Assembly: GCA_964016885.1 (NCBI GenBank)
Contig: OZ024741.1
Span: forward strand, 378,014,001-378,078,000
Origin: Eledone cirrhosa
Lineage: Eukaryota
Length of the DNA stretch: 64,000 nucleotides
Direction: 5' to 3'
Of the stretch, positions 11,141 through 64,000 are shown piece by piece; position 1 is the stretch's first letter; each line of letters begins with the position of its first letter. Below the pieces are notes generated by a model. The model worked only from the letters and a program-made list of their open reading frames with translations. It made no database searches and had not been told where the DNA came from. The translations under genes and the position numbers were made by a program.

Positions 11141-14100
11141 ATGAAAATAATGAGATCGTAAATGATAAGGAAATGAATGAGAATGAACTTGCCAACTTGA
11201 AGGATGAAATTATGATCGAATGGATGAAAATGAAAGAATCTGACATGGGGCAACGAGACACCCTCCCTAAGATCCAGAACTCCAAACAGAACCAAAAGAT
11301 AATACACAAGACTAACATAATTCTCAAAAACATTATCATCACAAACAAACTAAACATTACTGATTTAAATCATCTCTATTATGCATCAGCTAAAGTCACC
11401 ACTCACTTATGTGGAGTGAAGATGAAAAAACAAAAGAATTCCCACAAGAAATCTACTTGGCAAGAGAACATCAATCGCCAAATAAACCTTCTCCGATCTG
11501 ACATAGAAATTTTAACAAACTATAAAGTAGGTGAACATGTTAAACAAACTAAACTTAGAAAATTGAAAAAAAAGTACAGTATAAAATCAACATGTGACAT
11601 AGACATGCTGATAGAAATAATCAAGCAAAAAGTGTCGGCCAAAGCTGCTCGTATAAGGCGCTTTGAAAAACGATCTAGATTCTATAAGGACAATAATATG
11701 TTCAAAAAGAACCAAATAAACTTCTACAGAAAAATTGGTAAGTCAACAATAACTGCTAAATCAATACCACCCAAGGAGGAAGTGCAACAATTCTGGGAAA
11801 AGATCTGGGCCGAAGAAAAAGTTCATAACATACATGCCCCATGGATAGACAGACAAATGAAACATACAGCTCACCTTGAGGAACAAACATGGGAAAATAT
11901 AACAGTTGAACAGTTGCCCTTGGCTCTAAGAAAAACCAGCAAATGGAAATCCCCAGGAAAAGACAAAATACAAAACTTTTGGATAAATGCCTTCACAGAG
12001 TCTCATGAGCTGTTAGTCCAACTTTACAATGAAATAGTTAAGGAGCCAGAAAAGATACCTTCATGGCTAGTTAACGGCATTACATTCCTGCTTCCGAAGA
12101 ATGATGAGACAAACAATCCCAAAAATTACAGACCGATAACTTGCTTGACCACAATGTATAAAATGTTAACATCAGTCCTAACTGAATACACATATGACCA
12201 CCTGATAACAAATGACCTATTTCCCATTGAGCAGAAAGGGTGTAAACGAGGCTCATATGGCTGTAAGGATCAGCTTCTGGTTAACAAAATGATACTGGAA
12301 GATTGACATAATAGACACAAAAATCTATCGATTGCTTGGATAGATTATAAAAAAGCATTTGATAGTTTGCCAGACAGTTGGATTGAAAAATGTTTAGAGA
12401 TTTTCAAAGTATCCCCCGTTGTCAGGAGGTTTTTGTCATTCAGTATGAAGACATGGAAAACGACACTCCTTTTGAATAGTGAAACAAAATCACTGGAAGC
12501 TGGAGAAGTTAACATTAATTGTGGAATTTTTCAGGGTGACTCTTTATCACCGCTTTTATTCTGCATCGCACTTATACCATTAAGTAAAATGCTCAATGAA
12601 ACAAAACATGGATATAAAGTCTATGACAAAACCATTAATCACCTGTTCTACATGGATGACCTAAAACTATTTGCAAAAAATGATGAACAATTGCAAGGGC
12701 TATTAACCACTGTGGCTCAGTTCAGTGATGACATTAAAATGGAGTTTGGACTAGATACATGCGCCAAAGCAACGTTCACCAGAGGAAAGCTGCTGAAGAG
12801 TTCAGACATTAATCTTGATCGGGGGAACGTGATAAGAGAACTTGATCAAGAAAAAACTTACAAATATCTAGGTGTTTGTGAAGGAGACGGAATCAAGAAC
12901 TCGACAATGAGGGAAAGGATAAGGAAGGAATGTTACCGCAGAGTAAGAGCAATATTAAGAACGGAATTGAATGCAAGGAATAGGATCGATGCCATAAACA
13001 CGCTTGCCATACCAGTAGTAACCTACAGTTACAATGTCATCAACTGGTCAAGCACAGAGATCCGTAGGCTCGATACAAAAATTCGAAAATTCTTAACCAT
13101 GCACAGAATGCATCCCCCTAAGGCAGATATAGATAGAATATATCTCCCTAGGAAAGAAGGAGGACGTGGGTTAATCCAGTTAGACATTGCGTTGAAAACT
13201 GCAACAATTGGATTACCTACATATCTAAGGGAATCACATGATTGGATGATCAAACTCGTTTTGAAACACGAAAGCATCAAAAGATCATATTCCATTACAA
13301 AAGATGCACAAAGATACAGTAATGGACTACAAATTTCAGAAGTCCCATTTACTGCTGAAATGGAAAACACAGAAAATGCAAAGCAGGTAAAGGTAACTGC
13401 AAAGAAAGAACTGCTACAGAAACTGGCTAAGAAGTGGCAAGAAAAGCCTCTGTATGGAAAATACCCAGAGCGAGCTAACAATCCTGATGTTGACAAAACT
13501 TTAACACATCAGTGGATGGCATCCTCTGGACTGAAATCGGAAACTGAACGACTGATTATATCGGCACAAGATCAGTGTCTGCCAACAAAAAATTACCAAG
13601 CCAACATAATAAATAATGGGTGCAGCCCATTATGCTGTGTATGCAAAAAACAACCAGAGACCATTGACCATATAATTTCAATGTGCAGTCCTATAGCTCC
13701 AACCGAATACCTAAACAGGCATGACAGAGCTGCACAATACATACATTGGATAATGTGTAAGCCCCATCAAAAGAATTGGTGGGAGCATCAACCACCTCCC
13801 ATACTTGAAAAAGATCACATCTCAATCTTGTGGAACTTTAGCATCCAAACAGACCGAAAAATAGATGCAAACAGACCTGATATAATATTGAAAGACTTTC
13901 AAAAGAGGGTATGCCTGCTAATTGATATGTCTGTTCCAATAGACAAGAATGTATCTATAAAAACATTTGAAAAATTGAGCAAGTATAAGGACCTGGAGAT
14001 AGAAATTGGAAAAATGTGGAAATTGAGAACTAAAACAATACCAGTGGTTGTAGGCGCTCTGGGAATGATACCTAAGGGGTCTAATGATTACATATCGCAA

Positions 14101-14330
14101 ATCCCAGGAAACCCGCATATAGGAGAAATACAAAAGATAGTATTAATGGGAACTGCCCATATACTAAGGAAGATTCTGTCAATATAAGTACATCACAAGT
14201 CTAAACACTAAAGATGCATGTGTCAATATGTATGTTCTTTCTTGAACATGGCGGACCTTGTTGTCTCTTGAGGTCACTGGTTGTGACTTGGTGATAACTC
14301 GTATGAATATAAAGCAAGATAAATGCAACT

Positions 14331-14331
<1 letters not shown>
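11141..14331 (+). mobile_element. R4/Dong-clade non-LTR retrotransposon, family A copy 1 (5'-truncated, internal stop at 12304)
   Basis: ORFs 11173-12306 and 12367-14187 carry RT motifs ([38 protein letters not shown]), a CCHC-like knuckle (C..C....ETIDHI...C), RHD and REL nuclease motifs (RPD..D..KLSKY). A 3' UTR of about 145 nt ends in (TAA)n. Confidence 0.9.
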
Positions 14332-14384
<53 letters not shown>

Positions 14385-14385
14385 T
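14332..14385. repeat. (TAA)n tract joining family A and family C tails (tail-to-tail junction 1)
   Basis: AAATGCAACTG-(TAA)n-TGTTTTCTTTATT. Confidence 0.95.
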
Positions 14386-61462: not shown

Positions 61463-61496
61463 GTTGAAAAGGATTGGAAAAGATGGGAAAGACCAC

Positions 61497-63474
61497 TTAC
61501 CTTACTTCTCGTAGGGGAAGGACGGCTTTTCCATTCTTTTCACTGCTTGTGGCCTCCTCAGGAAGGATGTCCTTATAAATCCTCCTGGAGAGTGCTTGTC
61601 GGAAGTCTCCGATGTCTTTGGGGAATTTTTGTTTTAGTGTCATGTACGTTTTCTGTGTGATGCGAGTGATTTGTATGTGTGGAGGTGGTGTGAATTTTGG
61701 GGTTGTTGTGTAGTCTTTTTCTGTGATGCTGCTGTTGTGTTGGATGTAGTGTAATAATTGCTTGTTGTTCAAATTTAATGCTGTGTAGTGTGTATTGTTT
61801 TGGTTGTTTTGTTTTGTTTGCGTTTGTTGTGGGTTTGTTTCTGTTTCGCATTTTGGTGACTTTTGTGGTGTAGGTGATGGTGGTGTTGGGGTTAATGATG
61901 GTGATGGTGTTGGTGTTTGGGTTGATGGGGTTGGTGATGCTGGTGTGGATGGTGGCATATCTGTCGTAACTTTTTTGTTTCTTAGTTTATTTGTTTCCCT
62001 CTGTATTTTGTTTTTGGAGGGGGAAGGAAGAGAATTTTTTCTTTTTTGGTTTCTTTTTTTTTCCGGATATCGTTTCCCACTCCTCGTCGTCACAATCTGT
62101 CTCCAGTTGTGATAGGCCAGGGAGTGGAAAATCCTCCACAGCCGTTAGTTTTGGTTGTGGTGTGGTGGATGGTGTAGGCGCTGGTGCTAGTTCTGAAGCG
62201 TTGGGTGGTGGTGGTGTTGGTTTTGCTGGTGGTGGTAGTGGTGTTGGTTTTGCTACTGTTGCTGGGGTTGTTGCTGTTATAGTTGCTTCTGTTGTTGCTG
62301 CTACAGTTGTTGCTGCCATCTCTGCTACTGGTGGTGTTGATGGTTGTGTCACTGGGGTGGGTAGGAGAGGTGGCCTCAACCTTTTAGCCTGAGGGCAGAA
62401 AGCCCTTAGGTGGGTTCCTTCACCACAAACGACACACCTAGGTCTTCTGCCCTCGACAATTACCGTGAGGTGGCTGCCGTCAGTGAGGTCTATTACCTCT
62501 GGAATCTCCTCAATGCTTTTTTGGTCCGCTTGGATCAGGAGCTCCATTCCAGATCCGGACCAGTTTTCCTGCTTTTCTTTTGCTACTGCTATTATTTTCG
62601 TGTTGGCTTCGATGCCGGCGAGGACAGCCGCTATTAGCCAGGGAATTTCGATGGCCGGTGGAACGTGGGTCACCCTGACCTTTACGAGTCTCTGGCCACA
62701 ATAGCTTGGGACGAGTGTGAGGTCGTCACTTTTTAATGGGGCCATGGAGTGTTCTCTAGCCTCCTCTGGTGTTTCAAAGAACACATCCACGGTGCCATAC
62801 TTTTGCCCACGTCTGATGTAGGTTTTTCTTGCCCACACATGTCCCAAAGCTTTTTGGATTTGGGACTCGGATGCCCGTTCCACTCGGCGCGATTTTACAT
62901 TTATTGTTCTATACGACACGGTGCACAGGCGCCTATGCTCCATTTTATTAGGTGGGGTGGGGTGGGGGGCTGACCCTGTACCATCTTTCTTTACCATTTG
63001 TTTAGCATTTTCTAAATCTTCTTGAGTTACCGTGAACGCTTCGAATTGTTTTGATACGATGGCGAAACTGAGGGTCGGTTTTATAATGTCATTGTTGTTG
63101 TTGCTATCGTTAATATTATTTTTAGTTTCAGTTGTGGTGTTGGTGACGTCAGTCGTCTTTGGTGCGGAAGAGTCCATTTTGCTTGATTTCATTTCGACAT
63201 CACGAGTTAATTTATTTTTTTCTTCTTTTGTTTCTGTTGTCGCGGTGGTGGTGGGGGTGGGGGTTGTCGCGGTGGTGGTGGAGGCTTTAACACCTGCAGT
63301 CATTGGTAATGGCGGGAAATGAATGTCTGCCTGAGACAAATTTAAAATATTGCTACTGCTTATATTTTGTTTTGTGTTGGCAAACGTAGTAACATTTACA
63401 ATGGTGGTGTCGGTGTGAGGTGTTATTTTGTGAGGAAGGCTTTCAGCTGCTTCGTGCAGAGGGGAATTAGCCAT
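61497..63474 (-). pseudogene. ORF1: gag-like nucleic-acid-binding protein, split by one homopolymer frameshift near 62055
   Basis: The 495-aa frame has a Thr-rich N-terminus, an RRM-like TVDVFFETPEEA, the CX2CX4HX4C knuckle CVVCGEGTHLRAFC and a Pro/Thr-rich region. It continues in the 61497-62093 frame, and copy 3 reads through this point in frame. Confidence 0.8.
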
Positions 63475-63700
63475 TTTTTTTCAAAGAAATTTTTGGATAA
63501 TAATAAAAGTTAAAATTTTGGGCACAAGGCCCCAATCTTTTGGGGTGTCCTTTTCGGAAAACAATGTATGTGTGCTTATAAACAGTTAACAATAAAATTT
63601 TCCATAAATGACAATTTTTAACAAACGGAAATAACAAACCTTTGCGGAGCTCACGATGATACGATTTACTACGTAGGTCGCCAATAATAATAATAATAAT

Positions 63701-64000
63701 ATTAATGGTGAAATCAGGGAAATGAGAAATGACATTGGAAAGCTTGAGTCCCTACTGAATGGGACACTAAAAAACATAGACACTAAAAATAGACTGGAAA
63801 TAAAGTACAAAACTAGGAGGAAAAAGCTAAATATTATCACAGAGGAACTGAAGCAACGCATTGTAGCAAAGAGTGCAAACATTAGGCGATACCAGAGCAG
63901 AGTCAGTCAGAATAGACAGAACCGCATGTTGCACAACAATCGGAAGTTGTTGTTTGGACAGCTTGAAAGGAAAGAAAGAGGCAACGACTTGATCCCTGAG
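63701..64000 (+). mobile_element. Start of another 5'-truncated R4/Dong-type element (family B or a third family), running off the window
   Basis: After (TAA)n at 63683-63700 the frame reads INGEIREMRNDIG..KYK..EELKQRIVAKSANIRRYQSR..QNRML. This is homologous to the pre-RT region KQKVSAKAARIRRFEKR of family A. Confidence 0.75.

Follow-up and report, generated by a model that had tools for sequence, protein, structure and literature searches.

In the genome of Eledone cirrhosa, two unrelated classes of retrotransposon that lack long terminal repeats (non-LTR) lie in opposite polarity in one simple repeat, (TAA/TTA)n, and form arrays in which each class keeps to its own strand. The array described here occupies most of a 64,000-nucleotide window (assembly GCA_964016885.1, contig OZ024741.1, positions 378,014,001 to 378,078,000, forward strand), in which position 1 is the first nucleotide. 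It is made up of families A and B, which combine a reverse transcriptase (RT) with a restriction-like endonuclease (REL), and families C and D, which combine an apurinic/apyrimidinic endonuclease (APE) with an RT. The reading that we favour, with a probability of roughly 0.85, is that this is a pile of independently inserted non-LTR elements in which A and B read TAA and C and D read ATT, likely via nicks in different strands of (TAA/TTA)n. Polarity, exact junction register, genome-wide recurrence and the independent origin of the copies are direct observations; the system is real, strong and genome-wide, and is not special to the window locus.

A first-pass annotation of the window had described about 53 kb made up almost entirely of non-LTR elements linked by more than ten TAA tracts, and this description holds. 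Elements and tracts together fill 99.4% of positions 11141-64000, and 13 tracts of at least four TAA units, every one on the plus strand, all lie within 14332-63699. No tract of at least four TTA units is found on the plus strand anywhere in the window, and no tract of at least four TAA units in positions 1-11140. Orientation is likewise without exception, as had been stated: REL pieces are on the plus strand (11/11) and APE pieces on the minus strand (6/6), as is one short interspersed nuclear element (SINE). The annotation had every intact REL 3' end running into (TAA)n, and a tract of the expected polarity indeed adjoins each intact 3' end in the window. The tract flanks it had reported for C are borne out, all four C 5' ends being preceded by (ATT)n; D, at 25427-27424, is cut at both ends and adjoins B on each side with no tract. 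The array limits of 11141 and 64000 stand as far as the filling of the interval is concerned and fail at the edges: at 11138, where TAA is absent, a 5'-truncated A meets a dispersed repeat, and on the right the array extends beyond the window, reaching about 72360 through more ancient C-like copies (79% and 73% identity) with decayed tracts. The A copy at 31147 is preceded by (GAA)19 rather than TAA. The features of the array are as follows.

11138-14331, plus: family A (RT and REL), 5'-truncated, no tract on the 5' side
14332-14382, plus: (TAA)17 common to the A 3' end and the C 3' end
14387-20270, minus: family C (open reading frame (ORF) 1 and APE-RT), full length
20271-20330, plus: TAA tract with one impurity, then (TAA)15
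20326-23370, plus: family A, 5'-truncated, small deletion in the 3' untranslated region (UTR); then a TAA tract at 23371-23427
23429-25440, plus: family B (RT and REL), both ends cut, SINE inside
24726-24910, minus: 185-bp SINE within B, 17-18 bp target-site duplication
25427-27424, minus: family D (APE-RT), both ends cut, no tract
27422-28668, plus: family B, 5'-truncated, older variant; then (TAA)20 at 28676-28735
28735-31034, plus: family B, 5'-truncated; then (TAA)15 and (GAA)19 up to 31148
31147-32676, plus: family A, 5'-truncated; then (TAA)18
32732-38633, minus: family C, full length, tract at each side
38651-43461, plus: family A, near full length, divergent 5' UTR; then (TAA)6
43478-46302, plus: family A, 5'-truncated; then (TAA)28
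46388-51236, plus: family A, full length, ORF broken; then a TAA tract up to 51271
50947-52592, no strand: A 3' end, tract and C 3' end duplicated in tandem (825 bp, 99.3%)
52094-57762, minus: family C, full length apart from an internal deletion; (TAA)11 at 57766-57798
57800-63681, minus: family C, full length, ORF2 frame open over 58043-61501 (1152 amino acids stop to stop); (TAA)5 at 63685-63699
63701-64000, plus: family B variant, 5'-truncated, running to about 65272 past the window

The assembly (3.0 Gb, 1796 contigs) was searched, and exact patterns were counted across the whole genome. For six element ends, the 30 best-matching loci each were fetched in addition to the window flanks, together with five 40-kb neighbourhoods, twenty 10-kb stretches and 14 unselected 10-kb stretches. 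Junctions were deduplicated before counting, and 40 3'-truncated ends were left out of the main counts. The exact 5' end of C occurs 1687 times in the genome and is directly preceded by ATTATTATT in 1570 of these; its 3' end is followed by (ATT)4 2536 times and by (TAA)4, searched genome-wide in one phase, not once. In the junction census, intact REL 3' ends adjoin TAA in 115 of 118 cases (1 both, 2 none) and full REL 5' ends in 25 of 28 (3 none), while TTA flanks 93 of 95 intact APE 3' ends and 47 of 49 full APE 5' ends, the remaining two in each set having no tract. Chance was rejected as the cause of this association, since only 22 of 2590 53-nt windows (0.85%) in the 14 unselected stretches hold three units of either polarity. 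For D, 28 of 30 full 5' ends, the query copy included, lie beside TTA. A preference for a multicopy target has been defined as more than 20% of flanks (PMC4494074), a level that both C (1570/1687) and D (28/30) exceed.

The register of the junctions is fixed. With the hyphen marking the boundary, the 3' ends of C read C-ATT in 61 of 62 cases and those of D in 29 of 30, and C 5' ends read ATT-GGCGA in 43 of 44. Of 207 pairs of neighbouring elements, 197 obey one polarity rule, members of the same class pointing the same way and members of different classes opposite ways. Moreover, at one locus (L038) the tract inverts and an A copy flips along with it, indicating that orientation follows the tract and not the neighbour. 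Mixed arrays with the same kind of polarity, between about 10 kb and more than 30 kb long, are present in each of the five other neighbourhoods examined, so that such arrays do recur at other loci. A common target used in opposite polarity, and growth by independent insertion, are thus upheld by the genome-wide flanks and by the relationships among copies; flanks and orientation hold throughout the genome, rather than giving way elsewhere to random insertion or to both orientations within TAA.

How such junctions could arise can be outlined from target-primed reverse transcription, in which an element with an ATT sense strand primes on the AAT strand. The C/D endonuclease would nick the TAA strand, leaving ...AAT-3'OH. 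An AATAAA signal is located 6-7 nt ahead of the tract in both C and D, so that their transcripts would likely end inside (AUU)n, and such read-through RNA would pair with the ...AAT-3'OH end. A second nick, on the TTA strand, would complete the insertion; if the first A after the element is target-derived, both C nicks would fall at T^A steps. A and B would carry out the mirror reaction on the TTA strand, as is assumed for Dong. One tract would become two with each insertion and slippage would lengthen the tracts again; the more tracts a locus had, the more insertions it would draw in, so that each extra tract would feed further insertion. The first tract would likely be seeded by the tails of SINEs and of other long interspersed nuclear elements (LINEs).

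A variant of this explanation, which in our estimate falls somewhat short of even odds, assigns polarity and most of the targeting to the RNA tail and not to the endonuclease: a loose, T/A-preferring APE would nick either strand, and only nicks paired by the tail would be used. It would weaken the notion of two enzymes converging on one microsatellite. Both strands of the (TAA/TTA)n duplex carry a T-A step, so that tail pairing alone could fix polarity. The SINE also speaks for this variant, as it has the same 3' register as C and D yet needs only about four matching bases (ATTA follows 39 of 45 near-full copies and GTTA another 2), its polarity follows ATT across loci, and it often lies outside tracts, where about ten copies show, on inspection by eye, unique duplications of 11-19 bp. 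Among 83 SINE 3' ends, 33 adjoin TTA, 48 no tract and 2 TAA. Furthermore, priming by SART1 and R1 is helped by RNA pairing to the nicked strand (PMC7265360). On the other hand, C is far stricter than the SINE, with 93% of its 5' ends following the full 9-nt tract as against 22 of 58 SINE 5' ends that adjoin a tract, and endonuclease swaps between SART1 and TRAS1 moved specificity (PMC7265360).

Less probable again, and in our view doubtful, is a wider version of the favoured explanation. Here an endonuclease of the L1/Tx1 group would have come to recognise (TAA/TTA)n in a truly strand-specific way, on the strand opposite to that of the Dong REL enzyme and without common origin of this trait; the two clades, together with a dependent SINE and 5' modules swapped among families, would make up a self-feeding community, and arrays sorted by strand would be its product at thousands of loci.

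The array in the window grew by independent insertion, with only 825 bp contributed by duplication. Copies of A in the window are 93.4-98.7% alike and those of C 94.4-95.8%, the best match of each of the ten window A and C copies lies outside the window, and the trees are star-like. Since the copies are not each other's nearest relatives and their truncation points differ, we conclude that they arrived separately. Amplification of a single ancestral A+C pair, which the first-pass annotation had considered, is therefore not what the copies record, and segmental duplication was rejected as the main cause. Growth mainly by tandem or segmental duplication of such a unit is accordingly very unlikely, even though it could draw on the 825-bp duplication (99.3%, including one REL piece and one APE piece), on three near-identical C-type copies with an alternative ORF1 in tandem elsewhere (contig C7, 29.19-29.21 Mb), on the recurrence of the junction A 3' end-tract-C 3' end, and on two A copies (A39103 and A43478) that are 98.7% alike. 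Besides the outside matches and unequal truncation points, the irregular alternation of three families and the identical polarity at dispersed loci on many contigs speak against it. Two loci on contig C4 (L032 and L034) have the same junction of C 5' end, tract and truncated A, which points to duplication or co-mobilisation.

Equally improbable is that the (ATT)n on both sides of C and D is the element's own RNA and that insertion is untargeted. Flanks at full-length 5' ends could have been transcribed together with the element at the donor site, and 3' tails are expected to be RNA-derived; copies that are 5'-truncated, however, cannot carry their flank on RNA. Such copies, chosen by their body only, still adjoin TAA for A (12/14 and 6/13, 18/27 overall) and B (9/10, with 1 beside TTA) and TTA for D (10/13; C, 0/1), against the background of 0.85%, and single tracts are common to neighbouring elements.

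Several points weigh against the favoured explanation. As loci were chosen at element ends, neighbour flanks in the junction census are biased towards tracts, a bias that the anchor-only 5' count and the whole-genome exact patterns escape. Truncated REL 5' ends (n=118) adjoin TAA in 82 cases, no tract in 34 and the wrong polarity, TTA, in 2; truncated APE 5' ends (n=54) adjoin TTA in 21, no tract in 31 and TAA in 2, although some of the tractless APE ends are joins to another ORF1 module and not true ends. Outside the main counts, 4 of 21 3'-truncated REL ends lie beside a TTA tract. The polarity rule is broken in 10 of the 207 neighbour pairs. Target-site duplications of A-D are unreadable in pure tracts, and the strands and nick positions proposed above are deduced from junctions. 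The copies used for comparison were picked by their likeness to window copies, which favours matches outside the window. A microhomology count at truncated 5' junctions was not used, nearby mismatches having distorted it in part (32 of 69 REL rows negative).

C and D each have an ORF1 and an ORF2, the latter with an N-terminal APE, an RT and a C-terminal CCHC zinc motif. Pfam recognises Exo_endo_phos, RVT_1 and zf-RVT, and the APE motifs are present in C and, all but one, in the D copy tested. The best solved relative is human L1 ORF2p (E 4e-49, as against 6e-19 for R2). One CX2CX4HX4C motif each is found in the ORF1 of C, in its alternative ORF1 and in that of D; an ORF1 with a CCHC knuckle is typical of Tx1. 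The ORF2 proteins of C and D are 73-75% identical, whereas C matches A or B in the RT at only about 25%. A named relative of the C RT comes from cuttlefish (49% identity), and protein searches with C and D had no named Tx1 sequence among their matches. The labels Tx1 for C and D and R4/Dong for A and B are provisional, being based on architecture, target and literature and not on a tree.

A C-type ORF2 (96% amino acid identity) is also found behind a different ORF1 and 5' UTR (L213:2475-4616, L229; this ORF1 is 44-48% identical to that of C), and the 5' end of this alternative element adjoins tracts with the same ATT polarity. Near-identical C sequence (window 57800-59300) is present in sequencing runs under many organism labels, so that the C family is probably common to related species. 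In contigs of four runs labelled as other organisms, parts of C were covered and no contig spanned a tract; no RNA holding C sequence was listed in the search for relatives in other species; and 70 metagenome loci held distant relatives only, none with four units of TAA or TTA.

A and B each consist of a single long ORF with an RT, a CCHC knuckle and the PD-(D/E)xK motifs of an REL (RHD, RPD..D..K), the open frames reaching 1216 amino acids in A (L219) and 1141 in B (L227). Pfam matched RVT_1 and no APE family in either, and among their relatives of solved structure, R2 proteins score best (E 4e-26). None of the sequences matched in protein searches with A and B bore the name of an R4, Dong, HERO or NeSL element. 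The first 450 amino acids of A and B hold no C2H2 or CCHC pattern, and no zinc-finger Pfam family matched either N-terminus at E 0.1. A 90-amino-acid N-terminal piece of A is predicted to fold into four helices (predicted local distance difference test 90.5). Foldseek returned no match for it at E 0.001, and with VIA-align all scores stayed below Z 8: Sap1 6.0 (root-mean-square deviation 7.4), Zeste 5.3, NgTRF 4.9, the ISWI SANT domain 4.9 and residues 146-215 of R2 4.7, these rows being mixed with unrelated ones. The predicted fold hints weakly at a likeness to Myb/SANT domains; R4/Dong elements have a diverged N-terminal Myb/SANT-like domain (PMC7998251).

The A and B proteins are 35% identical, and despite this their 530-bp 5' UTR (window 46398-46920; L221, L225, L227) is 84% identical, which suggests that the 5' UTR may have been exchanged recently between the two families. 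The A copy at 38651 has a third 5' UTR variant (72-75%). Scanned with Rfam at E 1, positions 11000-64000 yielded a single chance match and no ribozyme or RNA family. The 5' end of A and B starts with a GAAGAAGA-like sequence, and (GAA)n expansions are found 5' of A or B copies (window 31092-31148; L097, L115, L225); the (GAA)19 of the window, however, precedes a truncated A. No clear A>G excess of the kind left by RNA editing was found in any window copy, the highest being 6 of 32 private changes. Pooled private sense-strand changes of family B comprise 34 A>G and 10 T>C (A making up 33% and T 20% of the sequence); C and D do not show this mild skew.

Dong inserts in (TAA)n in most insects, molluscs and cnidarians (PMC7998251, PMC3812793); it is listed among APE types in PMC3812793 and as REL in PMC7998251. 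A and B resemble the Dong elements of the R4 clade (Bombyx Dong, DongAg, DongBg, ostracod Dong1/2) in their single ORF, RT, C-terminal REL and (TAA)n target on the sense strand. They differ in the 84% identical 5' UTR that two such divergent families have in common and in stacking with APE elements. Bombyx Dong has a self-cleaving HDV-like 5' ribozyme (PMC3774820); Rfam detected none here. Target-specific families belong mainly to the early-branched, Tx1 and R1 groups (PMC4640811), and the Tx1 families Kibi, Koshi and crocodilian Tx1 are specific for (TC)n, (TTC)n and (TTCC)n/(TTTC)n (PMC4494074). C and D are, like these, APE-RT elements specific for a microsatellite; their target is (ATT)n, and their placement in Tx1, as opposed to another L1-group clade, is tentative.

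TRAS1 and SART1 insert in opposite directions in one telomeric repeat and form arrays (PMC7265360, PMC10088271), as A/B and C/D do in theirs. Both of those, however, are R1-clade APE elements at Bombyx telomeres, whereas here the partners are REL and APE elements with unrelated endonucleases, the target is TAA, and the arrays are interstitial and dispersed, the window lying in a 416-Mb contig, 38 Mb away from its end, and family copies being spread along contigs. R1 and R2 in 28S rDNA pair an APE with an REL element at one multicopy target locus. They use separate sites in a gene and their insertion makes no new targets, whereas one microsatellite serves both classes here. In Octopus vulgaris, five Dong-R4 and 13 L1-Tx1 families, all recently active, and 288 transposable element (TE) hotspots were reported (PMC13282606), in a main text where the words 'target' and 'nested' do not occur. 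A literature search, whose scope lay outside Repbase, Kojima and Fujiwara 2004, figure labels and supplements, found no Tx1/L1 family at TAA/ATT and no such cephalopod arrays. Dong at TAA, Tx1 families that target microsatellites and elements facing opposite ways within a tandem repeat are thus already known, and with these in print and the locus one of very many, the first-pass description of an undescribed system was overstated. What appears to be new is an L1/Tx1-group family on (ATT)n that shares Dong's target in opposite polarity.

The SINE at 24726-24910 has what we take, from box motifs, to be a tRNA-type head, and may be mobilised by the C/D machinery or by another ATT-tailed LINE. Other LINE-like elements, presumably RTE-type, and a further repeat (L235:3-3120, L238:1-2508; L025, L067, L075) end in (ATT)n next to D or C and may seed tracts. 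The dispersed repeat at the left edge (10787-11137, about 350 bp, 3656 candidates in the genome) lacks in the window a terminal part that other copies have, and its matching right end was not found within the 124 kb examined. Nesting of the array within one split host element was rejected because this right end is missing, which makes a deletion more likely. Further left, at 5966-6994 (minus strand) in TA-rich microsatellite DNA, a 342-amino-acid open frame without a Pfam match ends in cysteine-rich motifs that look, we assume, Penelope-like, and 2228-3203 and 8956-9844 form an inverted match (85%).

Since every part of the system has precedent, the gain is incremental. It adds (ATT)n as a target for APE elements of the L1/Tx1 group and provides a natural pair of unrelated enzymes acting oppositely on one simple duplex, which makes testable how far LINE targeting and orientation come from the endonuclease and how far from RNA-tail pairing. 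It also offers a concrete route to large LINE clusters in a 3-Gb animal genome. If the self-feeding community considered above is real, such arrays could explain the TE hotspots of octopods, and read-through transcription from each class would yield RNA antisense to the other.

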